A stretch of DNA of 60,552 nt, the filler included, from Bipalium vagum (Eukaryota): assembly GCA_037834085.1 (NCBI GenBank). It is 3 parts of 3 records of this genome, joined end to end, with 100 filler letters (N's around TTAATTAATTAA, not from the genome) between each part and the next. Parts side by side here need not be neighbours in the genome. Positions count along the whole stretch, not along the records: positions 22,822 to 40,154 come from JBBMKC010070838.1; 2 more parts are not named here. The stretch is one strand, 5' to 3'. The first letter of the stretch is position 1. Every line of letters begins with the position of its first letter. The notes beneath the pieces were generated by a model that worked only from the letters and a program-made list of their open reading frames with translations, did not search any database and was not told the DNA's origin. The position numbers and the translations under genes were made by a program. Shown in pieces: positions 22,822 through 57,564 of this stretch.

Positions 22822-22824
22822 CAC

Positions 22825-22886
22825 TATTATTCTCATTTTGAAGTTTATTGTTCCATTTTGAAGTTTATTATTCTCATTTTGAAATT
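22825..22886. repeat. ~20-bp tandem repeat, 3 copies
   Basis: tattattctcattttgaagt / ttattgttccattttgaagt / ttattattctcattttgaaa. Confidence 0.8.
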
Positions 22887-23922
22887 AAAAAGGTATAGTT
22901 ACACTTTCATTACACTAAAGAGGATTGAGCCATGAGGTTGTTATATCAAAACAACTATCAGTTCTGTAAGGAAGTTTCACAACATATATCCAAGCATATT
23001 TAGACTCACTCTGTCAACACCATCGAACAATGGTGGCGCGCTTTTATTTGTGTATTTTCAAATAAAATGATTAAAGTTTGTACATGGTATCAAAAAATTC
23101 CTTTTTTATAATTATATTTTTTACAGAAATTCTTAATATTTAAATTTGCCTGGCCTTTTCTAATACTTATAAGAAAGTGATAATATTCATTATTATAAAA
23201 AAGTTTTAGTATTCATTGATATCGAGTAATAATAATGTTAGTCCTTTATATTCATCTTGAATTCTAAGTTGGTTCACTTTCAAAGTGTTATTATTAGTCT
23301 AAGTTTCAATCATAATCAGTATTGTACAAGATTAATTACAATATAAAGGTTTTTCTCGTTTTAATTGTGTCAAAAATTCTATTGATAACTTTTTTATTAT
23401 TTATTTTTCTGAAGTTTGAATGATTTTGGTGTGGGCTTCAGTTGTTGAATTCTGGATTTTTAATTGCATCAAATTAGCTGCTTTAAATTTGAGTTTCTTA
23501 AGAAAAAATTGATTTTTAAAATTTTTCAATCAATTATTTTTTGAGAAAATTATTAGAAAACTTTAATTTAGAAAATGAAAATCATATTGGAAACATTAGT
23601 AAGGATAAAAAACTAAATCCTTATTTCTTAGCTTATTTGATGCTTTTAACATGAAAATTAATAAAAATTATTAATTTACAAATTTTTCTTGTATTTGATT
23701 AATTCAACATCTTAACTGTTTTATCCATTTACTATTATGGCATATGTATATTCTTTGTTTAAATTTCATACTAAAATTTAATTAAATCAATTTTATAAAC
23801 ATAACAATTAACAATGTTTGCATTTAACTTAAATAATTCATGAATTGAAAATTAAATATTAAATCAAAGATAAATATAATTATTAATTGAAATATCGTAT
23901 TTTTGTTTATTATGCATTTTAG

Positions 23923-26900
23923 ATGTATTCATCCGTCAATTCCAGTGGCGATGCTTTGGAATGTGATGATCAAGATTTGGTTAATTTTTCAGAAACTTTC
24001 AAACGACACCAAGCGGATATCGAAGCAAATTTTTTAAAGTTTACCAAGGATCAGCAGATAAATCTTGTCCAGGGACTATTAAAACAGATGTCACATTATC
24101 AGCACGGTCAGATAGATGCCTACCTCAAACCTATGCTTCAGAGAGATTTTATTACAGATTTACCAGGTAATCAATTATTTCAAACTTTAATATAATAATT
24201 TTCAGTATTTAGCATTTTTTTGTCAATTTTAATGCATTCCATACATCGATAACTTTTATGTTTGATTTAATTAAATTTTTTTTTGTTCCTGAATCGATAC
24301 AATATTTTCTTTTCAGCTAAAGGCCTCTTTCAAGTATCGGAACAGATTCTCTCGTATTTGGACGCGAAGTCATTATGTGCAGCCAATCAAGTAAGCTACA
24401 GCTGGCGACAAGTGATTCGAGAAGGTTACTTATGGAAAAAGCTTATCGAGCACATGGTGATGACAAACTCACTTTGGCGCGGCTTGGGTGAACGTTGTGG
24501 TTGGATAAATAAGCTCAGTATTCCAGGTCGACATATTCATCCTCGGAATCCACGGAGTCGGATTTTTAAAAGTGGTTCAGATTCCAGTGGGATTTACATG
24601 TCCAATAATTTGAGCGGTCTCCTCGTTTCTCCGAATTCCACCACGGTAGTAAATGAAAATTATCTGATAACTGGAGGTGGACCCGGAACGGGGACCTGTG
24701 GAGTAGTAGGTCTAGGAGGAGCAGGGGTAGGAGTGGGGGGACATCAAGAATTTATGGATGATAATCCAATCATATCTGGTTACGAATTGATGGATCCAGA
24801 ATATTATCGGAGGCTGTATCCGGAAATCATTGTTAATATCAAGGTTTTTAATTTTTTTGGATTTTATTATATTGAAATTCGAACTCATCTTTTCAGAGAA
24901 TTCAGAAAAATTGGCTCACAGGAAAGTACAATTTGAAAAAAATCGAATGCCACAGTGAATCAAGCAAAGGGGTTTATTGTCTGCAGTACGATGACCGAAA
25001 AATTGTCAGTGGCTTGCGAGATAATAGCATAAAAGTATTTCAATGTTTTTTCACTGATTAATTTACTTTTGTGACTGAAAACTATCTTTGAACGACATTA
25101 TCTGTTGTATTTGGTTAACAAAACCAAATTGATTAGAGAGATAAATGGAAATATAATCTTTAGTCCGAAAACCTCTGTTAAGTATCTCTAAAGAATGAGG
25201 GCTGAAGCTAAATCTATGTTTAATTTCCATGATAAAGTAAAATATTACAAATATTAAATATTGTCTGATTCATTGTTAATATTGACATAATTCGATATGG
25301 ATCGATTGAAATTATTAAATTAAAATTCTTTTTTAATAATAGTATGAAAATGTTATTTTTTCCTGACAAACGGAATTAATTTTAATGTCATAGTGAAATT
25401 TTAAACGATTTTTAGATTTAAAAATGTACAAGACTACCAACAGTGACGGAAAATTCCTAATGGACAATACGAAAATCGATTTCACGGCTTCTTTGTGGTC
25501 TTGGTTTTGTAATGCTTGGTTTCTAACTTGTATCGGTTTTACTTGATTTTCTGATGAACGTGGAGGAAAAAACAAGTTTCACTTTACTCTTTCTCATCTT
25601 GCTTCCATTGATTATTGAAAAATCTAATTTGATTTTCAGTTTTCGATTTTTTTACTGATCTTTCTTTATTGATTTTCATATTTTCACGGTTTTGCGTTGA
25701 AGCGATTTTATGTTTTTCGATCTTTTGCGATGCGGGAAAATATTTTTAAAAGAATAATCAATTTCATTTTTGATCAAAAGATCAAGATAACCGATTTCTT
25801 TTTTTCGTTTTGATTATCTTTATTTTGATAGACATCAGGTTTTATTCAGTCATCAAAATCAACAAAAAATCAGATCCAGACTTCGTTTTATTTTCTTTTA
25901 CGTATTAAATCAATTAAATTCTGAAAGAATCGATTATTGATCTTCTTTCTGTTCATTTAGCCACTTAAAGATATCAGTTGACGAGCATACTATTTAATAA
26001 TTTCTTAAAAAATCACTAAATAACATTTGGATATTAAAATCGATTTTTTATGTATGACCGTGTTTTATTTATTGTCAACGGAGATATTTATTGGACAAAA
26101 ATTACTTTTATTGATTCACTTCATAAACTTTAGAAAAATTAAAATCTAGATCTAAAAGAAATCAATAAATGTGCATCATTTATTTATATATCCTTGCTAT
26201 TTATAACTCTAAGAGATGTGCTGGAACTTTTTTGTTAACCTTTTTTTAATATTAATATATTATAAATATCTATATTGATTTCATGTTGACTATTTTTCTT
26301 ATTATTTGACAGAAAAATATAGATTTTTAAATTTAGTTTAAAAAATCGATAAAGCTCAGAATTTCCGAGTATTTAATCTAAACAAGGATAAAATCTGTAA
26401 AACCGTAAGTGTTAATACATAATAAAGAAATCTTTTTATTGATTCACTCGTGAAATCGTTTATTATTGTAAAATTAATAATACGCTAAAAATTCGATCGA
26501 ATTTCTTTCGGACTGTAACGGTTTTTCTTTTCTGTATTCGGCATGCTTATAATATCAAGTTTTATATTAGGTCTACAAATATGACTCCGCCGTTTTTACC
26601 CTTATTTAAAATATAATAAATAAAAAACAACCAAAGCAAATTTATAAAAGATTTTTTATTAAAAACAATTTCCTTCACTCATGACAACGTTTTCTCAAAG
26701 TTGTGGCAGTTTATGTATGCCATCATAGAAAAAAATATTTGATTTAGAGGCAATCCAATGATCTAGCCATTTTTTTTACATTTTTTAAAGCTGTGCTCTG
26801 ACAGACCATGTGCCATCGAACGGAATAAATGATAATCCGTCTGAGAAATGTCTGGAGAGTATGGCGGGTGGGGTAAGACATCCCATTTCAACTATTTTAT

Positions 26901-29900
26901 AGCCTCATCAACGGTTTTGCGACATGAGGCCGAAAGTTGTCATGAAGCAATATTATCAGGCCATTCTGGTCGATTGGCAGCGATTTCTTCTTTTAGTTGC
27001 ATTAACTGCTGTTGATAGCGATCGGCAGTCACTGTTTCACCAGGTTTCAGAAGTTCGTAGTACAGGTTACCTTTTTGATCCTACCATATGCATAACAATA
27101 CTTTTTTTCCCAAGAATGTTGCGCTTTGGAGTTGACTAACCTGGATCAACCCAAGATCTTTTTCGTCTGGGATTGGAGAAATATATCTATTTTTCATCGC
27201 CAGTTATTATACAATGAAGGAAAGATTTTTTTTGTTCATTTTGATCAAAATTTCGCATGTGGTTTTTCTCTGCTCTTGGCTTTTTTCTGTTAATGCATGA
27301 GGCAACCACTTTCCCACCTTTAGAATCTTTCCTAAACCGCGTAAACGATTGGAGATTGTTTGTTGGGCAACATTCAATGAAGCAGCTAATTGTACCTGAG
27401 TTTGACAGTCGTCTTCGTTCAACAAGTCTTGCAAATCAGGATCTTCAAATTTTTTGGGTGGATTTCCGTGGGCATTGTCATTAAGGTTAAAATTGCCCAT
27501 TGGAATTTTTGAAACGATTCCCGACATGTTCTTTCAGCTAAAGAATTGTTGCCATAAGCCTGTTCTAGTAATTAATTTGCTTCATCGGCATTTTTCTTTA
27601 AATTAAATAAAAATAATTAAGCTTCCCGCAAATGGTTATTTTCCGGCACAAATGTTTTCATCTAAAATATTAAATAATTAATGATGTGCAAACTATTTTA
27701 AAAATTATATTATTATAATTAGCGCTCAAAGTGAATATTATTTAAACAACAAATATAAAAAAAAATAATATCATTTTAATTTTAATTATAAAAAATAAAA
27801 ACGGGGAGTCATATTTGTAGACCTAATATATTCGCGTTTTATTGTTGAAATATTTAAAAATTATTTTTATTAATTTCATCTCGCTTATTAAGTTTTTGTT
27901 AAAATATGGGTTATTATAAATTAAAAATCAATAATATATGAAAAAAATCAAAAGAAATTTGCCGTCGAACTATTACCATCGATTTAATTTTCTCATTCTT
28001 GGGATGATTTGGTTCCATTTTTGTTCTCATTGTGTAAATATTAAAAATCACCTTTTATTGTTGACTAAATTGATATTTATCGATTATTTTAGAGTAAAAA
28101 TTAATAATACCATAAAAATCTATTAAAACAATTATCCTTTTAATTATTATTTATGTTAATTTAACCAAAATTATTTAAATTAAAAATCCAAATCAGAAAA
28201 AATCGATATATTTCCAATTGAACTCTTGAGTTACCTTTTATCTTTCACTGTGGGATGAGTTTAATTTAAAATCTATCTGCCATGATTGGGTAATGAAATA
28301 TATTGAATTTCCTTTTTATTGATTTATTCTTGGTTATGTGAAGCTAGAAAATTTTCAATTGATGTTTTTTGATAGTTAGTTTTATTTATTTTATTATTTT
28401 TTTATTTATTTTTGTTAATTAATATGGAATATCTTCGATTATTTATTATTTTATTTCGAAAAATTCGATAAATTTCCCAGCGAACTGCTTACGATCGATA
28501 ATCTCTGGTTTCTTAAGGTTTGGGATGCTCGAACTCTCGAATGTATTCGAGTATTAACGGGACATGTTGGTAGTGTCTTGTGTTTGCAATATGACAACAA
28601 TGTCATCATCAGTGGTTCCAGTGATTCTACAGTTCGTGTTTGGAGTCTTTCGTCGTGGTCATGTGTCAATACTATTTATCATCATTGTGAAGCCGTTTTG
28701 CATTTGCGTTTCGCTCACAGTATCCTTGTAACGTGCTCAAAAGTAATGTATTGTGATTTTTTTCTCAAGTGTTGTTCATTTGTTTTATCTTTATTTTCGT
28801 CTCTTCTCTTTCTCATCATCCCCTTACCAATGCTCACAACATCCGACTTCCTCTCACATCCAGGATCGCAGTATCGCTGTTTGGGATATGTTTGCTCCCG
28901 GTGATATCAGATTGAGAAGGGTGCTTGTTGGACATAGAGCGGCAGTCAATGTTGTGGATTTCGATCAAAAAAATATTGTTTCGGCAAGTGGCGATCGAAC
29001 AATTAAAGTCTGGAACACTCAGTCATGCGAATTCTTGCATACGATGAACGGTCATCGACGAGGTATCGCCTGTTTGCAATATCGTAACAATCTGGTCGTG
29101 TCCGGGAGCTCAGACAACACAATTCGTTTGTGGCAGATCGAAACCGGAACCTGTTTGCGAACGTTGGAAGGTCATCAAGAATTGGTTCGCTGTATCAGAT
29201 TCGATTCCAAATATATTGTATCGGGCGCTTATGACGGGTAATAATCATAAAATTAATATGAATGTAGATTATATATATTATTATTATTAATTTATTTTTA
29301 GTATTTATCAATTAGTTTTATATTTTTACTATCATTAATTATTAATAATTTATTTTTTATGAATTCTTGATTATTTCTTTTTCATTAAATATCGATTTCC
29401 TTTTTAAAATTATTTTTGTATCAGTTATCGAAATTTTTTTTTATTTTTAATAATTTTACATTTTTTATCAATGATCTTTGGCTTTTTATTATTGTTAGTT
29501 GAAAATTAATCTGATATACCGTGATTCGAACCCGGGACCCTTCACATGCGCATGGACTGCTCTGACCACTGAGCTACATCCCCAACTAACTTTCAAATTA
29601 TCTCAATTATATTTTAATTTTAATTTATTAAGTTTTTTTTATTAATTATTATGATTATTTTATTTACTGATTTATTATTTTCATCTTTAAAAATATATTT
29701 TATTTTTAATGTCCTTAATTATTGCTTTTTATTTTATTAATTGTCGAATATTTTATTATTTCTATTTTCATTAAATATCAATTTTTTAATATTTTTTTTT
29801 ATTAATTATTTATAATTTTTTGATATTTAATGTTTATAAATTTATTATCAGTAATCTTTGACCTATTATTATGTATTATTATTATTATTATTATTATTAC

Positions 29901-31735
29901 CAACTTACAACGGTATTTTTGAGAGGAAATTGGTTTGTTTTTGCTTAATTTTTCCAGAAACACATTAAAAAATCAATAAGGAAAGCAAAAGATCGGTCAT
30001 TTTCAAGCGTACAAAACACCCACATATTTTTTTATTGATATATTTTGATTATTTAAAATAATGAATATTGTTATTATTTTAAATATTGATCTTTTTAAAA
30101 TTTTCTGAAATATTCTTAGTTATTCATTGATTTTTAAATTTATTTTTCTTCATTCGTTTTAACAATTAAAACATCGATAAAACCATTATTTTGATATATT
30201 ATATTATTTTAGTAAACAAAAATTATTATCATTTGATGATGGGTAACTGAACTATTTGATTGACATTTTTAAAAGAAAGTGATTTCGTTGTTCATAACAA
30301 ATTTTTTATTGAGATTCGATTTTTGTTAACTGATTTATTAGTTTATTGATTGAGTTTAATGGGAAATATTTAAAAATATTGAAACAAAAATAAGCTGAAA
30401 TAAGAATTAAGAGATCAATTCTTTTATTGTTGTCTAAATATTCATTCTCTAATGTTAATTAAAACTTTCAATTACTTACATTATAGATATTGAACTGATT
30501 ACTGGAAAATGTCTAAATATATATTAAAAACCTTTGTTGCAATATATAAGATCCAATTTTCGCGATTGGCACTTGTCTCGTAAGGAATTGTTGACATTAT
30601 CACTAATTGTTTTTCGATTAATTAATTGCAATAATCATTAAATCGACGCTAGGCGTGCATTCTCCGTCATACGTGAATCTGTGTGGTTGGTCATTGACTA
30701 TGTCCGTTATCTAAGGGACTTCACATCATCGATTGATTTTCCACATTTTGAGTTCTGAGTTTTGTTTGCTTTATGTGCTCAACTTTGATTTTTTGATGAT
30801 ATTGATTTCAATAATTATTTTTACTATTAATCAATAATTGATTACTACTAGTACTAATGCTAATAATATTATCTTTAATACTTTTTTTTTATTAGGTATT
30901 ACTTGATTGATTTCTCATAATAATGTTATTATTTTTATATTAATTGTAGATTTCTCATTTTATTATTATTATTAAAATATGAATTTCTTAGTTTATTAAA
31001 ATAAGAACGATAAGTCAATAATGTATGATATTGAATGTAGAAACGTGTAAGGATATTATGTGATTTGAAATTGATTTGAATTTATATCTAAATAACAGAC
31101 TTTAAATTATTGTAATAAATAATATAAAAATTGGCTAAAATTTTATTTCATATTATTATTAATTTTTATTGATTAAAATATACATTTTAATATCATTTAC
31201 ATGAAAATTTGAATCGAATAACTTAAGAATGATGAAGTTATTGAGTCAATAATTAATGGTAATTTCTCTTTGTCTTTGTATGTTTGGTTGTCATTGTAAA
31301 GGTTATTGAGAATGATCTTGATCTGGATGATGATGATCTAATTATGATGAAGATGATGATTATTAGGCTTTTTTCAGGAAAATCAAAGTTTGGGATCTTG
31401 TGGCTGCCTTGAATCCCCAAAGTCCTGCCACCAGTCTCTGTCTTCAGACACTCAATCAACACACCGGTCGTGTGTTCAGGCTACAGTTCGATGAGTTCCA
31501 AATCGTTTCCAGCTCTCACGACGACACGATTTTGATTTGGGATTTCCTGGACACTGCTGGTGTCAATCAGGTAGTCAAATTAAATGATTATAATAACGAG
31601 GAAATTGTTTACAACAACAACGATCATGGCAACGACAGCAACATTCACCGTAACCACAGTAGCAACAGCCATAGCAACCACAACGCATTTGATGATTATA
31701 GCTACGAAGAACCCCACGAACTTGATATGACTTGA
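23923..31735 (+). CDS. BTRC: beta-TrCP / Slimb (FBXW1/FBXW11) F-box WD40 substrate receptor of the SCF E3 ligase; ~621 aa from the ATG at 23923
   Basis: Exons 23923-24166, 24317-24843, 24897-25034, 28518-28742, 28864-29237 and 31378-31735, all GT-AG and in frame. Dimerisation domain ([22 protein letters not shown]), F-box ([11 protein letters not shown]) and seven WD40 repeats with beta-TrCP signatures ([76 protein letters not shown]). The first ATG follows ttttag, so an upstream exon may exist. Confidence 0.96.
26567..27826 (-). mobile_element. Near full-length mariner (Mos1/mauritiana-like), inactivated, in beta-TrCP intron 3
   Basis: TIRs ttaggtctacaaatatgactcc...gttttt at both ends, TA on both sides, 1260 bp. 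Transposase starts at 27661 ([14 protein letters not shown]) and has KWLPHAL, LLHDN and HPPYSPDI motifs, broken by frameshifts. Confidence 0.93.
29512..29583 (-). pseudogene. Degenerate tRNA-Ala(CGC) or tRNA-derived SINE head, antisense in beta-TrCP intron 5
   Basis: Minus strand GGGGATGTAGCTCAGTGGTCAGAGCA GTCCA TGCGCAT GTGAA GGGTC CCGGGTTCGAATCACGG TATATCA. A and B boxes and D arm intact, G3.U70 retained, CGC at the anticodon position. Acceptor and anticodon stems are mismatched and position 33 is G. Confidence 0.7.
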
Positions 31736-33829
31736 TTCACACATTCCTGGCCCATTATCTGTCTGTCTCTTGAATTCCCACTCACCCTAAACCCTCTTCT
31801 CTGTCTTGCTGTGTCCATCTTTTTCTATCTGTCTGTCTGTCTGTCTGTCTCTCTCACTAACTTTCGTTCACATTATTGGAAAAAAATCACTTTTATGCAA
31901 ATACAGTTTTCTGAAAAAACGTTTTTATGTCAATTCTTTGTCATTCTGTTATTATTCCCATTGATTTTTATCGATTATTTTGACAGTAATATATTTCTGG
32001 GTGAGAGAAAATTCTGAGCGTCGTTTGCATCACATTTAATTTTAAATCTATATAAAAGTGCTATACTAAATAAATATTGATTAATCGATAAAGGTAGTGT
32101 AATATGTAGTGCATGATCTTCCGATTCCAAATCGTCCTGGTTAATTTCTTGACAACAAAAATATCGAGATTTTTCGATAAATGCGAGCACTTTTCATTGA
32201 TATTATGGGAAATCCAATTTTACAGGGAAAGAATTCATTCAAAATTTTGAAAAAGATTAGAATCAATTTACTTTTACAGCTTGTCTGTGTATCTTAATTT
32301 GTATCTTCATTCTCAAGAAACGAGATTCAGAGAGGGCGAGAGAGCAGCGCATAACGTGAACAGGTTTTGCATCAAAGGTTCCCATTGAATGATACTCGAA
32401 TGTTATTTAAGAACCCAAAATCGATTTTCTCTCTTAAGAGCTGATGTTTTGACTTTGAGATAGGTCCTGTTGCTATAATCACTAAAACATAATTAATCGT
32501 GCTCATGCTTTTTCTTCGTCGACAGGAACACCTTTCGAGATGGTTTAAAAAGTAGTACCCTTGGATATGAGGGCATTTTTCACTGAGTTCATATTGTACT
32601 ACTTGTTTGAATTGCTTTAACGTGCTTTGTATGTCAGAAAAATTGACCAATTGGCTTTCGGGTTTTTTGATTTTTTCTATCACAGTCTGTATGTGCTTGT
32701 GATATTTCACTTCGGGTCGAGATTCACATGATGTTTAGGAAACACTTTTTACACGGAATCAAAGTCGCCGACCTTTGTTCCGTTTTTTGACAGTTTTTTG
32801 CCATGAGTTGTTCAAAAGTCGAAAATTTCTTTGGGATATCGATTTAGTTCAAACGACGCTCGGAACGTTACCCTCTTTAATATGAGCCTATTTTAAATCA
32901 AGTTTAAATTTTTTATAATTATTGATTTTGTGTGGAAAGAATTACTAGTTTTGATATGCGGATTTTTTGCGAATTATAAAATCTAAAAGTTCGGTTTTTA
33001 GAATAACGTCTTTTGATTTTGATTTTCTTTGCCATCAGTTTCAAAAAGTGCGACACATGTGTATCATTGATTTTTTTTCTGTCGATTTGTTATTTTAAAA
33101 TCGATTTTGTTATTGATCGATAATTTATTGAAATTTAACTTATCGTTATTGCGTGGAGTTTTTGTTAAATCTTTGACTTTTTTTTAATGTTGTCAGACCT
33201 CAAAAAATGTGAAGTGAGTTTTTCTATAAAATAGCAAATGCGAATATGAGTATTTATCGATTGAATGGTTCATTAGAAATAAAATTACAGAAGGATTATT
33301 ATTGAAAGTGAGTTTTATTGAATTAAAAATACGGAAAACTATGTATACATGTGTGTGGTGCAAAATAGCATTCAATATTTAAGGACACTTGTTGATATCA
33401 TCTAATGACGCGCTTAAAATAATAAAGGGTTAAAAGAACTGCTAATATTGGAAACGGTTGTAATTCGAGATTTAGAAATGTGGTCGAAGTGAGCCGTAAT
33501 TAGTAAGAGTCACACGAAGTTATCCAATCAATGAGGATATTTTTCCACGAATTGTTTTCGGGACTAAAAAGAATTTTTCAACATTTTTTTCAAAGTGATC
33601 ACTAAAAGCAAATTTTTTTCTCGACAAAAAGACGAAATCACAGATTTTGATCCACTTGGCCTAGAAATATCAGAGAAATTATGAAAAATTGTTAAATAAG
33701 GGTCTAAATTTATTTTCCTGGAATGTATCGTAACCGGTTATCGATTTTCTTTTATTCTCATTCGGCTGTGTTTATGTTATGAAATAATAGAGGACCTATC
33801 AGATTGACTAACACTGGGTGTTGTCATAG

Positions 33830-34634
33830 AACCTTTAGGTGCATTATATCTGTTTCTCGGACATATCTCTAGACAATAATGGTCTCACCAGATTTTAGGA
33901 GGCTGTGATAAATGAGATCAGAGGCAGACAACCAAATGCTTACCATAACCTTTTTCGGGTGCGACGTTGTCGAACACAATTATGAACCAACCTTTGAGCA
34001 GGTCGTGGTCAGTTATAGTGCCACAACCATTTCTCATCGCACGTTACTGTATGATCAAGAAACGCAGCGTTTTGGTTGCGCAGAAAAGTCTAAAACAGAT
34101 ATGTCGGCCATTTCTTTGATATTCGGTCAATTCGTGCGATACTCATTTATTTATTTTTTATCCTTCAATTTGTGTTAAAGTGGTACAAAACGGTTATCTG
34201 ATGAACGCTGATGTTTTTCGCCGCTTCCCTTATGATTTTTTTTGAGTCTGCTTCGATGATTGTTTTTAACTGAACATCAACAACTTCTGACTTCTAAGAC
34301 CCTTTTCATCCTCCAAGCTGGAAATGACAGGCTGTAAATTTTTCAACCCATGTACATATGCTTCGTTTAGAAACAGCTTGATAGCTCAATACTTAGATTC
34401 CGTTTCATGTCGCTTCCGCAGCATTATGACTACGTTTAAATTTGTGCAGAAGAATTATCCGAATTTCTGGTTTTGAAAGCATTTCGAAAATAGTTAACTA
34501 ATTTAAATTAAGTGATGCATTTAAATAATTAACTACTTGATTATTAAGCAGAAAACGCGCTTTAAATAATGTTCTGTAAAAATATTGATACAGAAACAAT
34601 TTAAAAAACGGCCATTATTTTTGCACCAACTTAA
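33830..34634 (-). mobile_element. Decayed mariner (5' part)
   Basis: Minus-strand ELTEYQRNGR and FLDHTVTCDEKWLW. TIR ttaagttggtgcaaaaataatggccg ends at 34634 followed by TA. Left boundary approximate. Confidence 0.75.
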
Positions 34635-37600
34635 TATAGGATTCCAGAGGTGTGACTAAATTTGTTTGATTATTCAGATTTGTGATTTTGTAAAATAAAT
34701 TATTAAAAAACTTATACCTATTGAATAGAAATTGATAAATATTAATATAGCGACATCATGTGTGTTTATTATTATATGAAAAGAAAAGGAATACATTCTA
34801 GAACAAGAAAATTTGAAGTTCCCGCAACCAATAAATAATAATATGTGATGGGATCAGTTTCTGCGGACTATCTATTTTTTGTTTAACAGAAAAATATACA
34901 TTGATTGATTCAGATACAGTGAGAGAAAGGAAACGCCAGAGATTATTTTTACTATGTATACTACTTGGACGTGATATCTTCTACAAACAAGACTTGGTAC
35001 AACAATGCCCAGAGGGCATTAATTAATATGGAATATTAATAATCTGATGAATGTTGTCGGCAGTTCATTGACGGCAGTTCTGTTTTTCCAATATTTTTGG
35101 AAAAAATTTGACACTCACCGTACAAAAACGATGTCTAAATATTCAATGTGTTTTTATTGTCAATATTATCCAGTCAGAGTTTTATTGTTAAGTTTTCCAA
35201 AGGAAGCACTACATAGAAAAATTTTTGAAAAAAATCAATATATGTGAAATATAAGGGTTTCGTAAAAACTGTTTTCTTAATTATAAAATGGATTTTGTTT
35301 TTAAAACAAGACATTAGAGGTTATTAATAACGAACTTTTTATTTTTATGATGAAATTAACATTTTTAATATTGATTTTTTATAATTATTATAATTTAGAA
35401 ATAAGGACAGTTTTGATGAGATATTTGATTTCAAAATTGATTTTTAAGTGTAATAAATCAAGTATTCATTTTAAAACTGAATATTGTTTTTTTATAGAAA
35501 TGTTATCAGATCAATTGTTCGCCTTTTAATATTTAGTTGTCATTTTTGAAAATTTAGAAATGAAAAAAAATTATTACAGAAAAAGATATTACGGTCTTAT
35601 CCATTAAGTTTAAACAATGTAGTATGGAGTATATGACTAAGGCTTTAGATGATCAATAAATCTGAAGAACGATTATAATAAACAAGAAATGGAATGAAAA
35701 ATTAGAAAAATTGGAGTATGGTTAGTGAGGGAGAGTGGGACCTTCATGTATGAACTTGGAGTTGTCCCGAAGAAAAACAAAAATTTCACTTGATTAATTG
35801 ACATCCATAGAAATGGACACAGTAGCTGCACAAAAAGGTTAACAGGTTACATTTTAGTTAGAGTATATTAAACTTGTGGCCAGGTTTTGCGGACTTTGCA
35901 GGGAATCAATTTCCACTCAAAAGTGACCACTGTATTTAAAAGATGTTATCTGTTGAAAATCTTTGAATAGACATTAACTCTCTCCAGTAGAGTTTTATTG
36001 TTCCATTTGATAATTATTTAGAAAAAGTTTCATGGAACTATTTTATGTTTTGGACAGTTGGACAAAACTGTCGACATGAGCACAATTTAATTTTAGAGCC
36101 AAAAAATATCACACTAAGCTACAATATCATCATCGATTCATCATGAACTTCAATTCTTTATTGACATACGAAAACCGATACCCGGCAGATCAATATTTTG
36201 TATCACACAATTATCATATGCGATGTTAAGGTTAGAGTTTTTGAAATCTCTTTGGTATTGTGTTTAATCTGTGGTTTAAAAGTACCAAGATTTCAGAATT
36301 CATGAGAAATAAATAAAAAATTAAGCAATTTTTGTTAATAGTAACAAAATATTTATTTTTCTTACTCACTTTAATAAGAAAAATAATCAATTAACGATCT
36401 TTTAGTGATTAATACTCTAAATGTCAATATTGAATTTCTAATTCAGTTATAATCAATGCTTATAAATAGACTTTATCATTCGTTAACTTTTTATTTTTAA
36501 AAATATTATTAAAATTTTTGTAATAAATATATCTATTAAGACATTTGAATATTAAAAATATTCTCCAATGATTAAATTCGTTTTGGATCAGCATTATTTT
36601 ATATTAATCAATATTTGTCAATGCAATATTTTTATTTACAAAAAATTAATATTGATTATTATGTTCATTTTGTTTCTTCCTAATCTTACAATACTCAAAA
36701 ACAATTATCTTACGGTAAACCCATCGATAAAAATTCCATTGATCTATACATTAAAATTTTATGTTAGACCCTTTTTTTTAAAATTGTCATCTATTTATAA
36801 ATAAATATTTTTCATGAATAATTTTCAAATGACAGTTGTATAAAAATAAAAATTATTTAAACTTATATATTAATCACTATCACGCATATATAGATTTTTT
36901 ATGGAGCGGTGGTTAAAGTAGTTGTCATTGAAATTTTGTTTTGTTAACAAATGATTTTATCGATTTATTTCTTTTTCAATATTTCAAGTTTGTATAAAAT
37001 CATAAAGAAAGATCATAAAAAATAACTGTTATTGACAAAAATATTGATTATCACTTAAATACAGATTTGTTTTATTTTTATTGATTTTCGTAATCAAATT
37101 AAATATTCTACATTAACATGATTTAATCATGATATAAATTTTTCTATCTGTCAGTGTCTGATGACAAAACGTCGTAAACGTATGAGTTTTTCATTGTTAT
37201 CAGTAATATATCCCTCAAACCATTTATAGTGCATGTCAATCAATATTGAACGTGACCTCTGTGTTTCAAGCTTCTTGACTTTTTGACATATCTAATTGAC
37301 AACCTAACTGATACTTTTAAGCTTGGTCATGGTTGTCATTGATGTTTTCTTTTCAGTGGTAACTTTCTGTAAAGTAACCGGTATTACTTTTGTCTTTACA
37401 ATTGAAAGTCGTTTTTTAAAAATGTTTTTTTAAAGAGAAATTAAAAAAATGCTCATCTTTTTCCAAAAAATTTCAATTTAATTTCTGATAGCATTCTTTC
37501 AATGTTGATTTATTGTTATCGATTGAGAAGAGTCGAGAAAAATTATCTTAACATTCTCTTCTGATATTCTTTTGGTTTCACTTATCTTTACTAGCATTTA

Positions 37601-37707
37601 CACAATTCAATCAATATATTAAATAAATTTTTATCGTGAAATCGATTTGATTTTTTAATAAACAATTTTCTTGGCCAGTTATTGATTTCCAATAATATTG
37701 ATTAAAG

Positions 37708-38316
37708 GATTCAAGTATGAACATGGTGCGAAGTCCAGTTGTGAGTCTTGACAATGATGACGAATCAATAATACCCATTGTTGACCCTGTGGTAATATTG
37801 AATAATGCATCGGCATCGAACAAAAATTTAGGGTTCGAATATGATTTAAATGCTCACGATAATTTCTCCATGATGATGAGTAGTACGAATTTTGCCATTG
37901 ATCCTTCAGCTCTTAATAATATGCTCGTCGGTCACACAATTCCCGGTAACAATAACACTCTCGTTTGTAATCAAAACGGCAGCAGCAACATCACTAACAA
38001 CAACCACAGTCACAACAACAGTATCATCACAACCACCACTAATAACACCACAAATAATGGAAATAGATCAGCTAGCAGCTTTAACATTAATAGTTACAGA
38101 AGACTCCATCAGACTCCTTCCAAACCTTCATTTGATCCTCGAGTCAGACAAAGTAACGACTCTCTCAACGAATCAAGACTCCGACCAACTTTTGATAACT
38201 TTCTTTTCGACAGCAGTCACACAAGTATCACTTCAGATCATGACGATATTCAGGCACAAGATAACGAAAATGAACACGATCACATGAGATCTTCTTCGTC
38301 TCGTCGATTTTCTTGA
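37708..38316 (+). CDS. Asn/Ser/Thr-rich low-complexity coding exon; probable alternative terminal exon of beta-TrCP
   Basis: 202 open codons after attaaag|GAT TCA AGT ATG, in phase with the CAG|gtagtc donor at 31570/31571 of beta-TrCP. AATAAA near 38965. It could instead be a separate single-exon gene from the ATG at 37717. Confidence 0.6.
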   Translation, partial: DSSMNMVRSPVVSLDNDDESIIPIVDPVVILNNASASNKNLGFEYDLNAHDNFSMMMSSTNFAIDPSALNNMLVGHTIPGNNNTLVCNQNGSSNITNNNHSHNNSIITTTTNNTTNNGNRSASSFNINSYRRLHQTPSKPSFDPRVRQSNDSLNESRLRPTFDNFLFDSSHTSITSDHDDIQAQDNENEHDHMRSSSSRRFS

Positions 38317-40154
38317 ATTAATTTTCTCTTCTTCTCACACTTTGTTTTGTTCTTGCTCTCTCTCTCTCTCTCGTCGATTTCGGTGTGTTTTAAAATCCGT
38401 TCTGTTTATTGTGGAGTCCAGTTTGAAAAATAGAGACGAGATGTTCAATTGGTTCGTCATTTTAAAACTTTTCTTTGATTTTTATCATTTTACTTGATAA
38501 TTAATGTGTTATTGATTGTGTAACATGGTTTATTATTATTATTAATTATTGGTTATTGTCCTTTATTGGGACCTTTATTTGAACAGAGAAAATCTTTCTT
38601 TTTCTCTGACTTGTTATTGCTTTGTCGATTTTCCTGCTGGGTTTTATGTTATGTTTTGGTTTGTACTTGTTTATTCGATTAATTTCTTTTTTTTCGATAA
38701 ATTTTGACAATTATTTCCCGATTTATTTTCCTATCCAGTGTCGAATCATGTTTAGACTTAGAGAATTGCGAGTTGATTTCGATCGTTGATAAATTGTGCG
38801 AATAATACCACCACCACTACCACCAAGTTTTTTCTAAATTCGTGAAATCTATTATTTATATCTATATACATATACATATATTATAAATGATAATATTGTC
38901 CTTCAAAGCCGTGAGAAAGATATTGGAGATAAACGGCCTGCGAAAATGTAGAAGATTGTAGTATAATAAAGTATTTGATACTTCTTTTTAATTCGGGTCT
39001 TTTTTCGATGAAAATGGTATATTAGGTTTTTCAACTTTATTACGAGAAAAAAATATTTAATAAAAAATATTTATTCTTAAAGCGAGAAAAATAGAAAAGC
39101 AAACCAATGTTTTTGAAGAAGAAATGTCAAACACGATTAAAATTGAATAAGTTCAGAAATTCTAAAAATTTACAAAGCCTTTGTTTTATCACACTAATTA
39201 GAGGTCAAGCAGAATTTGATTTAATTTATAAGATTATTTCTAAATGGTTTCAATGACAAATTTTTGTTTCCAAAGCAATGGGTCACCAAAGCGGAATAAT
39301 TTTATAAATTGATTTATTTTATGATTTCTGATTAATATTTAAATTTTACATGGGTATTTTAATCCACTGCCAAGATAATCCTGTAGATGAATAACAACAG
39401 AAAGAATCAGTTATTACAGTTGAACATGTTTAACTTTAACATGATTGGTTGAAAATTGTACATTTGTTCACAAAAATGTTCAACACACACAAGATTTTTT
39501 CATAAAAATTAAAGATTTATTTATTTTAAATACAAGCTCCTCCTTGGAAAGTAATCCAAAATTGTATTTCTGGTTATTTTCTATCTAATAAATGAGGGTT
39601 AACGTTGTCGAGACATTCCAGTTTATTAGGGGCAATTTTGAATAAACAGTTTAAAATGTGTGGATTTCTAAAATTTTTAATGTTCAAGATACAGATTGTA
39701 AAACTTACAGATTTATAGCCTCCTTTCAGAAAATTTGTTAATTTTGAAAAATGTTCAGCTTAAACAGATCCAACTGTGTACTAATATAAGATTTTGTTTC
39801 TAAATTTTTCAGTTAAAAATTACATATTAAATATAATTTTTAAATTAATCAAAATTTTGTAATCCTGTATCAAGTATTCCGTATTGTTCAGACAACATTA
39901 AACACTTTCGTTTCGGAACTGTTATTTGTCTAAATATAGCATGTTTAGAGCATTGTTCACTTCAGAATGTGCACTTTTATAGTCAAAGCTTATATTATTG
40001 TAAGGTTTTGGTTCGACGCTTACTGCGAGATCTAATCTCGAAAATATAAAAATGCTAACTCTATTAATATAGGTTAAAACTGGGCTCACCAACTACGTCA
40101 AAGGTAGTGTAACAAATAGGTGTTCTAAGATACGAACTAAGTTTAATTAAATTA

Positions 40155-41965: not shown

Positions 41966-43344
41966 ATGAATGAAGGTATTAAATTTGAAAGATTTTTCCA
42001 AGCCATTCAGTCAAACAATATCATGGAACTTGCAGCTTTTAAATGTAACAAGGTTCCGGAATATTTCAAATTCAGAGTAGGACAATATAACTTTGTTAAA
42101 CAAATTACTTTACTTACAAATTTAAGAACCCTTTTGTCGATGCATCAATGGTCGGTAACGTTCAAGTCCTTAAGATTCTCTATCGACAGATCCCCGATTT
42201 AATCAGTTATGAAGACAACGTAAGACAAATATGACCTTTTGTTTTAAACAAAACTTGTTTCCAGCGAAATTTCAGTCCCTTTCACCAAGCTTTGTTGAAT
42301 GGACATTTAGAAGCAGCAAAGTTCATATTTAAATGTCAGAGGCTCTCGGAGATTAATTCTAATAAGATGGTAGATTTTATCAAATATAGTTCGCAATATT
42401 GATTATACTCAGGGGTACATATTACACAAGGTTATCCTCAAAAACCAGTTGAATATTTTGGAATTTCTCTTGACATTCGTGGACATTAACTTCGAAAACC
42501 AAGTTACTTGAACTAATACATTATCGTGGATTGACTACTTTTTAGGAGGGTCTTTCTTCTTTACATCAAGCTGTAATAACTAATAATGACAGCATCATTA
42601 AATTGTTGATATCTAAACAAGCATTGCTAAATAATGCGGACAAAGTTTGTGTTACATCATGGGAAACATTCGAAAATAATCTTAAATGGCTTTTGACCTT
42701 TCAGAACGGAGATACGCCCTTGCACTTGGCAATAAAGCTGGGAAACAACTCTGCAGCGAGAGCCCTAATTCAATCGATACCTTCTCAATATATCGACCAG
42801 ACCAATTGTGACGGTAACAGTGCTCTCCATCTGGCCGCTTACAAGCAGAACACGGATATCATACCCTTCCTGTTAAAAAATGGAGCTGACATCAATTTAG
42901 AAAATCAGTCCCTGGTATCTCCCCTGGTTATCGCTCAATCTTCCAATAATTCCAGCTTGAAGAAACTTTTTAAAAATCAAGAGAAAGGTAAGTGGAATAA
43001 ATTCTTGAAGATATTTAAGGTAGGGGTTCATATATTTATTTGATCACATTGTCATGAGTTTTATTTAAGAAATTGAGACCGGATAAGAACGATGTAAGTA
43101 AATGTTGAGAATATTTATTTAAAACTATTTGATTCAGAAATCGAAAGGAAAAGCCAAGAAGGAAAATCTCAACAGCAGTTTTTGTGAAGTAAATTCAGTT
43201 TGGTGGTTGGTTTTGTTTTAATGAAATAATATTAGGAAGTGAAGAAAGAGCAACAATTTGAATTCAAACCTTACTCGGTACCCATATTTCTTATACAGTA
43301 CAGATTTAATATATTTTATCTAGAGACTCAAAACCCACATTTGA
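41966..43344 (+). CDS. Ankyrin-repeat protein, paralog A (~316 aa, 10 exons)
   Basis: Exons 41966-42076, 42127-42219, 42265-42369, 42413-42502, 42546-42644, 42705-43019, 43070-43093, 43138-43188, 43236-43277 and 43324-43344. All introns GT-AG, 43-60 nt, phase 0. Ankyrin motifs SPFHQALLNG, GLSSLHQAV, GDTPLHLA, GNSALHLAA. Ends RLKTHI*; AATAAA at 43366. The last four small exons are less certain. Confidence 0.88.
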
Positions 43345-49818: not shown

Positions 49819-51100
49819 TTAGGTGTACCGGAAAGTTATGCAGATTTTTTTAAATACATTTTTTATCATATATGATAAAATTAATCTTATTGTTTAAATA
49901 TTGTATTTTGTTTAGATATGTATTAATTACTAAGATAAACATTTAAATTTTATTAAAGTTTTAATATTCTATATATTTTTAGATTTAAACATGACACTAT
50001 TTATTCCGGAAAACCAGCATTTGCGGGAAGTGATCTTACATTATTTTATTATGAAAAGAACTGCGACAGAAACTTACCACATACTTTGCCAGGTGTATGG
50101 GAACCATGCTCCATCTCAGACTACCTGTGAGCGTTGGTTTAAACGCTTTAAAAATGAGAATTTCAGTATCAAAGATATTGGACACCCTGGTCGAAGTTTA
50201 TCATTTGAGGATCAAGAAATCCAAGCCATATTGAATGAAAATCCTTTCGAAACTCAGAAAAAACTTGCCTTGCAACTAGATGTTGCCCAAAAAATAGGTT
50301 CTAATAGGTTAAAGGCAATGGGTAATATTTTAAAGGAAGGGAAATGGGTGCCGCATAAACTGGACGATAGGCAAATTGAAAACAGAAAAGTGGTCTGTGA
50401 AATGTTGCTGCATCGACACTGAAGGAAATCTTTCTTACACAAAATTTTTACAGGAGATGAAAAGTGGATATATTATGAGAATCCCAAACGCAAGAAATCA
50501 AGGGTTGATCCGGGTCAGGATTCAAAACAGACAGCAAGGCAAAATCATTTTGGAAAAAAAGCAATGCTCTACGTTTGGTGGGATCAAAGGATATGATATA
50601 TCATGAGCTTCTTAACTGGGTGAAACTATTAATTCTTCTCGGTATGAAAAACAAATAATGGACCTGAACCAATCTTTGATAACCAAACGTCCAGAATTGG
50701 CAAAAAGACATGGTAAAGTAATTTTGCTCCATGACTACGCCTCGTCACATACATCAAAAGGAGTCAAAAGTGTCTTAAAAGATCTAGCCTGGGAAGTACT
50801 GACCCACCCGCCATATTCACCAAATCTTGCTCCTTCGGATTTCCATTTGTTAAGGTCGATGGCACATGGCCTTGCTGAGCAGCATTTCAAAACGTATGAA
50901 GATGTCCAAAAATGAGTCTTAGACTGGTTCGTCTCAAAACTAGAGAAGGTTTTTTGGGACGGCATCCACAAATTGACTGAAAGATGGGAGAAATGTATAA
51001 ATAATGATGGAAATTTTTTTGAAAAAAATATTTTTGTATCATTTGAAATTTTCGTTTTTGTTTGTCCTAAAAAATCTGCATTTTTCTCCGGTACACCTCA
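49819..51100 (+). mobile_element. Near full-length mariner (Mos1/mauritiana-like), inactivated
   Basis: TIRs ttaggtgtaccggaaagttatgcagattttt / aaaaatctgcatttttctccggtacacctca, ~1.28 kb. MTLFIPENQHLRE, WVPHKL, TGDEKWIYYEN, LLHDYASSH, HPPYSPNLAPSDFHL; premature stop at 50420-50422 plus frameshifts. Confidence 0.93.
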
Positions 51101-54800: not shown

Positions 54801-57564
54801 TTTTGTTACCTTATAAGAGGTTGGTTTGAGATCTTCCTTCTTGACCATGTCGGTTTTAATTATCTAAAGAAAACATCGATTATTTTCATGTCACCAAGAC
54901 CAATTTTCTTGCCACAAACCTGTTCGGATGCACTGTTGTTCCGTTTTAAAACTTTTTTTCCCGACGGTTTTCTTTCATCGAAAATCGATTGAAAGGGTTT
55001 CTGCAAAAGTGCTCCACCACTCTAAAAGCAACATACAAAAATCGATTAATTTCTTCTATTCTTCAATTAACAATATTCGTTAACCTTGAATAGATGGAGC
55101 AGTTTTTTCCATGGTTTATTCGTCTTCTTATAATTGTTTTCCAATACCATTTCTAATTCTGCATTTCCAGTCGATTTTGCGAGATCCAAAGAACTCTGTT
55201 GGTTGATGTTCTTCAGGCTTACATCGGCACCGTATTTCAAAAGAGATCTGATAACGTCAAAGTTTCTTCTGCAGACCGCCAAATGAAGAGCTGTGTCACC
55301 GGCCATGTTCGGTTGATTGAGGCACTGCTCCGGTAGCACTTTTATCAACGTTTTTGCTGCCAAGTTGCTACCACACCGTACGGCGGCGTGAAGAGGAGTG
55401 TCACCGTGCTAGAATATAAAAAAAAACCTTTCAATAACACAACTTCCACCTTATCAACGGTTCTTTGATGATCAATATTGACTTTTACCTTATTAACACA
55501 ATTGACCGTGGCCTTTTTCAATATCAGCAGCTTGATGATACTGTCGTTATTACCAATTGCAGCCTGGTGCATCGCAGTTAGACCGTTCTGAATTTAAACA
55601 CAAATAAAGTAACACAGCACAAACAAACAATCCAGTAACATTTCAATCAATAATTACCGGGTATAAATAATCAATATTCCCATAAGTCGATATGAGGTCC
55701 ACTATGTCCAGACGATTCTGAATGACCGCTTCCATGAGAAGTTGGTTTGCCTGAACCAAAGTGCCATTCCGTTAAGATTGAAATAAGAAAAGTGAGTAAA
55801 TCAATTACACATTCTGAGGATTTCTTAAAGAAAACTTTTGACTTTTGGAAAATAAATAGAGCTGCATCCAAGTTGCCGCTTTTAATGGCCTGCTGAAATG
55901 GCTCGATTCCCCGCTGTACAACAAAAAATCAATAAATACTGTTAGATGAAAGGGTTTATCCACTTATCATCCTCGTTCACTCACTTCATCGATTTTATCG
56001 ATATAGTCTGGAAAAGCGTTATAAAGAGCCTCCAAATTTCTCATTACACCCAAATCGGCCGCTTCTACGAAAGGGTTCTGTTTTGATTTTAGTAAATCAA
56101 AAAATCATTATTTTTTTTTCCTTTCATTAAAAAATACCAATGAGATCAATATTACCCTTATATAAAAGTTTTTCGCCTTCAATTTATCGATTCGGTTTTC
56201 AAAATTAGGGCCACATGTGAACAAAGCGGTCTTGTAGTATCTTTCCAATGCCAACTTCTCCTTTTCCGTTTTCGTTTGATCCATTTCTTAATCAATAATA
56301 ATAATATCGATAAAATTAAAAATTATAATTTAATTAAAACAGGGGTGGTTAAGAAATTTTTAACAAAAAATTCAATTTATATTACATGTAAATTTATTTC
56401 ACAAGAAAATTTAATGTTTTTACAAACAAATTTTTATTAATTTATTTTACCATAAAAACCTGCTTTATAAAAATTAATTAATTTCGATAAATTATTGATT
56501 TTTAAATCTCATTGATTCGTTCTTTTTTTATTTCGATTTTAAACTTCCCTTTGCAATTAATCGATCCAGTCAATATTAAGTAGACAAAATTATGAGAAAA
56601 TTTCGTTTTGGAAATTTAAATATGAAAAATTACATCATTATTTCCAATAATCAATGTATGAACCAATGGAAATTGAGACCTTCGTTTAATTTTAAATTCT
56701 TTTTATAAAATTGATAATTATTCAAAGTATTTTAAAAATTTATTGATGAAATCAATTTTAAATATTATATCAATAAAAAATTTTTTCCAATTGACCAATG
56801 AAAATTGAAGTCGATTCTCAATTTAATATTTGAAACATAAATCAATAATTAAAACAAAAAAATATTTAATAATTAAAATTACAACGCATCAAAAAAATCA
56901 AATGTCTCAAACATAGAAAATGATCACAGAAAAAACAATTTATATTACATTTTGTACCACACAGATAAAAATAATGCTTTTACAAACAAATTTTGAGCGA
57001 TTTATTTCACCAAAATAAACATTTCATTTGATAAAAATGTAATTTTGATTATTAAAAGTTTTTTTTAATATTACTTAAAACATTATCGATTTTATAACAA
57101 TTCTTTTCCATTTTAAAGTTTCAGTTTAAATTTTATCGATTTAATCAATGTGGAATCTATCATGAATCTAAACATGATAGAAATTCAGTTTTATTGAAAT
57201 ATTAAAATAAATAAATTATAATTTTATTAATATTTATTAATATAATATTAATAACAATGGTTATTATAAACTAATATTATTATTTAATAAATATTAATAT
57301 AACTTGTTATTAGTTTTTATTTTTCTTTATACTATAACAATAATAATTTACATTTATTTTTATAAATATTATTTTATTTTTATTTTTATTTTATTATAAT
57401 TTTTTATTATGCTATTTAATTTATGTTTACTTTTGGTTCATGTTTTATTACTTTTAATGTTTGAAAAGTACATTGATATTATATTAATAATAATATTAAT
57501 TCTTACTATTAATATTTATTATTTAATGTTTTTATTAATAATAATATCATCATTCTTCTTCTTC

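Follow-up and report, generated by a model that had tools for sequence, protein, structure and literature searches.

A partly conserved loop expansion in a Bipalium vagum beta-TrCP carries a degron look-alike that is a candidate self-degron

Does a beta-TrCP that carries, in an expanded loop of its own, a look-alike of the degrons that beta-TrCP reads use this motif on itself? The question is raised by a gene in a stretch of 60,552 nucleotides from Bipalium vagum (assembly GCA_037834085.1; three parts joined end to end, hereafter the window), whose second part (22822-40154, from JBBMKC010070838.1, contig C70838) holds the beta-TrCP locus. The original prediction saw in the loop a phospho-switchable pseudosubstrate on a flexible tether, built around the motif DSSGIYMS. 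Our analysis points to a lineage-specific and partly conserved expansion of a beta-TrCP surface loop, within which the motif is one part of a longer conserved element.

The window gene has six exons on the plus strand and five introns, all GT-AG, and its spliced frame runs for 621 residues without a stop. Exon 1 (23923-24166) contains the likely start ATG, found at the same place in a second copy of the gene, where no AG precedes it, and the D (dimerisation) domain (PF12125, E 2.7e-17). Exon 2 (24317-24843), with AG/GT boundaries common to both copies, encodes the F-box (PF12937, E 4.9e-11), the insert in full and the first part of the linker helix, followed by the linker end and first WD40 residues in exon 3 (24897-25034, including the equivalents of Y271 and R285), WD40 sequence in exons 4 (28518-28742) and 5 (28864-29237), and the last WD40 repeats plus a tail of unsure end in exon 6 (31378-31735). 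Family membership is indicated by the D domain and then the F-box (Pfam), as in beta-TrCP (FBXW1/11, Slimb, LIN-23), and by a WD40 part ~80% identical to that of animal beta-TrCP (278 aa). The degron-pocket residues are kept at all 17 positions checked in the window copy, five of which we take to be degron contacts. In the second copy the 14 of these positions that its contig covers are all kept, and the last exon retains GRVFRLQF. The remaining 12 positions are named as degron contacts in the available text of PMC13097077 or PMC10317156. Directly behind the last WD40 repeat, both copies show a possible donor after Asn-Gln (CAG/GT; window 31572); an Asn/His-rich tail (31566-31735) is present in the window copy and absent from the second one, and may represent read-through or an alternative end.

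Several other elements were observed in the window. Intron 5 of beta-TrCP contains a tRNA-like unit on the minus strand (29512-29584) that starts GGGGATGTAGCTCAGTGGT and has GGTTCGAATC near its end, for which ARAGORN made no call, and intron 3 contains decayed mariner-like transposase pieces recognised by eye (26700-27533), with no Pfam match for 27207-27530. A further mariner-like piece lies at 49934-50422 (Mos1 HTH domain PF17906 in 49934-50419), and the third part carries two similar ankyrin-repeat ORFs on opposite strands (42546-43043 and 55067-55408).

The loop (24505-24801, aa 145-243) sits wholly inside exon 2 and, as predicted, places 99 residues between the Trp of the CGW motif (W144) and the linker helix (Y244). 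The estimate of about 18 residues for the human loop was likewise sound (18 in beta-TrCP1 and 16 in beta-TrCP2), giving an excess of ~81 residues here. Its first section, which we call block A (24505-24633, aa 145-187), begins with about seven residues that correspond to an ordinary loop start, continues with a basic, Pro-rich stretch (24526-24570, aa 152-166), and ends in a Ser-rich stretch that holds DSSGIYMS (24580-24603, aa 170-177), a look-alike of SSG-type degrons, and two candidate priming sites, S181 and S186-P187 (24613-24633), at the +4 and +9 spacing originally described, the latter being the SP site. Large hydrophobics make up 13 of the 43 residues of block A. The variable middle (24634-24747, aa 188-225) includes the Gly-rich run that had been noted after the motif (24673-24741), and block B (24748-24801, aa 226-243) runs into the linker helix. 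Within the loop, 26 residues precede motif positions 1-7 and 66 follow (55 in the second copy). AlphaFold2 modelled the F-box and linker helices of exon 2 confidently and the first and last 8-10 loop residues with fair confidence; most of exon residues 79-151, motif included, had pLDDT <50 and no secondary structure, only two aligned sequences covering that part. No Pfam family matched the insert above the cut-off, and a C3_CUB2 match (E 0.076, under the cut-off) was disregarded.

When exon 2, exon 5, exon 6 and block A were used as queries against the animal's own genome, each returned two close matches and no third; capture of block A from another gene was rejected, since it has no other match there. 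The second copy lies on contig C199575 with its last exon on C148612, shares the intron positions of the window copy and has a loop of 88 residues. The read depths of the two copies' contigs are alike (22.5 and 19.2), although depth here is not a measure of copy number. Among other gene pairs that we observed (L030-L037), three of four showed 83-99% protein identity with 53-74% of four-fold sites different, and one was not close (26%). The simplest reading of the beta-TrCP pair and the similar gene pairs is an old genome-wide duplication; the pairs may instead come from two related species in one sample. Whether from duplication or from a second species, the second copy counts as one independent homologue.

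Between the copies, synonymous sites are at or near saturation gene-wide (pS 0.6-1.0 per region after the N-terminus). In block A a pN of 0.066 stands against a pS of 0.73, and 11 of 17 four-fold sites differ, which excludes recent splitting or gene conversion. At this distance block A is identical at 39 of 43 residues, a level that resembles the F-box region (57/62) and exceeds both the loop middle (11/25, gapped by 2 and by 13 residues; p = 5e-5) and the N-terminus (15/23); the D domain (56/59) and the WD40 part (213/221) are also well kept, and block B is identical at 14 of 18 residues. Since such identity in block A is found at saturated synonymous distance, we conclude from the two sequences that the insert is translated and that blocks A and B are under purifying selection, in agreement with the original view of the segment as part of the protein; the motif, too, survives at this distance.

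Conservation within block A is even. The basic, Pro-rich stretch is identical at 14 of 15 residues and the 25 residues ahead of the motif at 23. S169, S171, S172, S177, S181 and S186 are kept in both copies, the change at S167 is only to Thr, and the sole change within the motif is at position 6, Met in the window copy and Thr in the second (DSSGIYTS). The expectation that the motif would be better conserved than its surroundings was not borne out: it is identical at 7 of 8 residues versus 32 of 35 in the remainder of block A (Fisher p = 1.0, with little power from two sequences). Against the variable middle it stands out weakly (7/8 vs 11/25, p = 0.046, again from two sequences), and five given residues would all survive at block A's rate with a chance of 61%. 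Such even conservation thus picks out an element of 43 residues, the motif being only part of it. The idea of a Gly-rich tether fared poorly as well, as the run is not conserved and 13 residues are missing in the second copy.

No further sequence with the insert was found. A search for a third one gave 44 matches among 923 candidates, all to the F-box part only; words from the insert occurred in 0 of 79 candidates (lengths 121-387 only); a profile search of 1.84 billion representatives gave 226 matches, none of the best 150 of which extends past profile position 89; a metagenome search gave 15 loci, none carrying the insert; and an Atlas search for a homologue of the insert yielded leads only. 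A search with the WD40 part identified no close relatives, its matches being crowded by long repeat proteins, and in a tree (quick method, 30 selected rows) the two copies were joined (100) on a long, unplaced branch. In a survey of the loop itself, 205 fetched proteins had the F-box anchor and 108 of these also the linker anchor (the 97 others, mostly single-exon fragments, were left out, and lengths are one short in some rows); 99 of the 108 loops had 21 residues or fewer. Long loops were found in Paragonimus kellicotti P0212 (148 residues, in a gene model that looks faulty and repeats the F-box), P0273 (80) and the nematode proteins P0270, P0303 and P0307 (38-42). These insertions occupy the same place with unrelated sequences, and none of the five (148, 80, 42, 41 and 38 residues) matches the broad degron pattern defined below; one ordinary 17-residue loop (P0016) does. 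The 45-residue loop of P0231 was put down to intron read-through and left out. In P0263, a beta-TrCP fragment from ENA that represents another lineage with an expanded loop, the F-box helices are followed by a long, charged insertion, and the record ends short of the linker helix. Judged by these sequences, the loop that joins the F-box helices to the linker helix is an insertion hot spot.

How well the motif reads as a degron depends on the pattern applied. Measured against the canonical D-pS-G-phi-X-pS, position 1 is Ser and not Asp in both copies, and there is no DSG match anywhere in either protein; position 6 lacks a Ser/Thr in the window copy (Met, with Ser at 7) and has one in the second (Thr). 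The variant SSG/TSG pattern (S/T-S-G, a spacer of 2-4, then S/T/D/E) is matched by SSGIYMS and SSGIYTS alike. The broad published pattern (one of DSG, DDG, EEG, SSG and TSG, a spacer of 2-4, then S/T/D/E) arose in 20% of cases when the insert was shuffled 20,000 times (31% with the second copy's insert), falling to 5.6% (8.0%) when a hydrophobic residue was required after the Gly. For a pattern fitted to this motif after the fact, the share was 0.35%. When the columns of the two-copy block A were shuffled (50,000 times), both copies matched at one place in 4.8% of cases for the broad and 1.4% for the hydrophobic pattern. All these percentages are optimistic, because the motif was chosen by eye out of 60 kb. 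The insert itself is beyond chance by its purifying selection, and its likeness to a degron only modestly so. Other broad-pattern matches were seen at SSGDALE near the N-terminus (window 23941-23961), which is not matched in the second copy, and in the second copy's variable middle. In a predicted complex of unphosphorylated block A with the linker and WD40 part of a stand-in beta-TrCP from another animal (P0151), the scores were 0.03 and 0.04, where 0.34 is the mark; with a procedure unproven for peptides and no controls folded, these scores count neither for nor against binding.

Published degrons, as described in the available text of the papers cited, offer partial parallels. ATF4 DpSGICMS binds with one phosphate at a Ki of 3.6 nM, its Met at position 6 being buried (Collie et al. 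2026, PMC13097077; PDB 9TFU). As originally noted, SSGIYMS is two positions away from this degron, 5 of 7 positions being shared, with the core S-G-I-x-M-S in common; ATF4, however, has Asp at position 1 where the window copy has Ser, and in all five solved degrons of PMC13097077 the Asp at position 1 contacts R474 and Y488. PDCD4 uses a phosphoserine at position 7 (PMC13097077), where both copies here have Ser. In Table 1 of PMC10317156, SSG/TSG degrons account for 5 of 47 rows, all five with Ser at position 6, and no row of this table pairs SSG with the longer spacing seen in the window copy. DEPTOR and BIM have Ser in place of Asp, as here, and CPEB1 has S-D before position 1, also as here (PMC10317156). 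Among the SSG/TSG degrons (DEPTOR, BIM, CPEB1, PER1/2 and FBXW2) are SSGYGS in PER2 (PMC11223080) and SSGART in FBXW2 (PMC5241824); those listed in the table differ from the window copy in having Ser and not Met at position 6. For RASSF1C SSGYXS, binding is reported not to go through the WD40 repeats (PMC10487276). The usual spacing of the lysine upstream of a degron is K-X8-15 (PMC10487276); no lysine lies at 8-15 residues here, the only loop lysines being K166 and K147, with 4 and 23 residues, respectively, between them and motif position 1.

Set against this background, the most likely single mechanism, and one that we hold only tentatively, is that SSGIY(M/T)S acts as a weak self-degron of the multi-phosphate kind, with another beta-TrCP molecule as its reader. 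The phosphorylated motif would be bound by the dimer partner or by the second copy and would tune beta-TrCP's own level. Phospho-S171 would take the place of the usual Asp and phospho-S172 would occupy the first phosphate site, an arrangement modelled on the SSG/TSG degrons of DEPTOR, BIM, PER and CPEB1, while position 6 would be served by a buried Met in the ATF4 mode in the window copy and by a phospho-Thr in the second. Ubiquitination would need lysines outside the usual spacing, so that the motif could act by occupying the pocket as much as through turnover. A further reading is that phosphorylation of S171 and S172 turns the loop into a plug for beta-TrCP's pocket, either in cis or across the dimer; lacking a well-placed lysine, it would filter weak substrates or shut the ligase off and not destroy it. 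We regard this as unlikely. The pseudosubstrate idea thus stands in part, in that the segment is coding, the motif is kept and the pocket is intact, and falls short in that the motif is not, in the two sequences compared, conserved above its flanks and the tether is not kept. Taken together, the rivals of the self-degron hold the larger share of the probability, and whichever reading holds, the basic half of block A needs a role of its own; aa 152-166 form a candidate partner-docking or nuclear-import element.

Two of these rivals start from the extent of the conserved element, and these two and the self-degron do not exclude one another. Block A may serve to dock some partner and not the WD40 pocket, for example a kinase, an importin that binds the basic stretch or a cofactor specific to the lineage, the SSG match being a coincidence in a Ser/Gly-rich loop. 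Conservation that reaches evenly over 43 residues, far beyond a seven-residue degron, and that is as high ahead of the motif, fits such docking, as does the ease with which the broad pattern arises in shuffles (20-31%); the stricter pattern, however, is matched in both copies at a chance of only 1.4%, and neither a homologue of the insert nor a Pfam family above the cut-off points to a partner. We consider docking a doubtful but serious candidate. Slightly more doubtful is that blocks A and B form a structural add-on, folded back on the F-box, linker or Skp1, or on the propeller's side, with only the middle left as a free loop. Here the conservation of both insert ends with drift confined to the middle, the large hydrophobics of block A and the fair model confidence at the loop ends are set against the low pLDDT and missing secondary structure over most of exon residues 79-151, an objection that is itself weak with two aligned sequences. 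That the Ser cluster is a phospho-switch with some other reader seems improbable; examples would be an Fbw7-type ligase acting at LV-pS186-P, or a relay, proline-directed or of the CK1/CK2 type, with an effect on location or activity. S186-P does follow hydrophobics, and six other Ser/Thr sites are kept with S167 going only to Thr, but the residue at +4 from S186, Thr in the window copy and Pro in the other, misfits the Fbw7 pattern.

The other rivals deny the insert a function or a place in the protein. A tolerated expansion with no regulatory job, its copies alike through a recent split or homogenisation, would be in keeping with the unrelated insertions that the loop takes in the fluke, the nematodes and P0273; it is contradicted by the pS of 0.73, the 11 differing four-fold sites and the low pN in block A, for which it is largely refuted, and it probably holds for the Gly-rich middle. 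For the insert as a whole we give it little credence. Least probable, to the point of being barely credible, is that the segment is an intron that is always spliced out, or an assembly artefact. In many animals the loop's opening Trp codon does appear to be the site of an intron (fragments ending in GW), but there is no GT at that codon here, and the GC content of the insert region is 0.33-0.52 compared with 0.20-0.21 in two neighbouring introns. Together with the pattern of amino-acid conservation, this speaks against both an intron and RNA constraint, the latter having been rejected for block A because its four-fold sites are saturated; selection at the amino-acid level, gaps that keep the frame and the presence of the insert on two separate contigs argue against intron and artefact alike.

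The original statement that no built-in degron was known in beta-TrCP needs correction. According to the available text of Cui et al. (PMC7206145), human beta-TrCP1 and 2 degrade each other via STAMKTE (residues 97-103 of beta-TrCP1) and TDGPPNS (residues 197-203 of beta-TrCP2), motifs likewise inside beta-TrCP and each proposed as a degron for the other paralogue, and Islam et al. (PMC8093472) report that beta-TrCP2 is lost degron-dependently after DNA damage. In our alignment TDGPPNS falls in the loop homologous to the insert, and the Bipalium assembly likewise has two beta-TrCP copies. The beta-TrCP2 loop has 16 residues versus 88-99 here, and the human motifs differ between paralogues whereas both Bipalium copies carry the same motif; with no sequence homology between the human and Bipalium motifs, any likeness would be convergent. 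The human precedent is atypical in motif, and its degron mutants, although stabilised, still bound (PMC7206145); the motif here is closer to real degrons but known from sequence alone. Beyond beta-TrCP, KLHDC2, also a cullin-type substrate receptor, is autoinhibited by its own C-degron mimic, which fills the pocket of a neighbouring copy (PMC11470957, which cites Scott 2023), and for MKLN1 a self-recruitment that competes with substrates is described (PMC13676621). KLHDC2 differs from the present case in its Kelch fold, C-terminal motif, tetramer, independence of phosphorylation and experimental demonstration, the motif here being a candidate mimic by sequence. With the human self-degrons, KLHDC2 and MKLN1, a receptor that carries its own degron is thus already known, whereas the degrons of ATF4 and of the SSG/TSG group lie in substrates and not, as here, in the receptor itself. 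In the literature available to our search, we found no paper on this insertion or on any invertebrate beta-TrCP self-degron.

Among the proteins whose levels beta-TrCP sets are beta-catenin, IkB, PER and numerous regulators of the cell cycle. If the motif were a chance likeness, what is left would be a conserved, lineage-specific 43-residue segment in an insertion-prone loop, a curiosity. Should a kinase be able to plug the pocket by way of the motif, the lineage would have a direct switch on these pathways, with a kinase-controlled off switch, evolved afresh in one animal lineage, inside the receptor for beta-catenin and IkB turnover. It would also offer a clean, naturally occurring test of the self-degron idea, for which the human case depends on atypical motifs whose mutants still bind.
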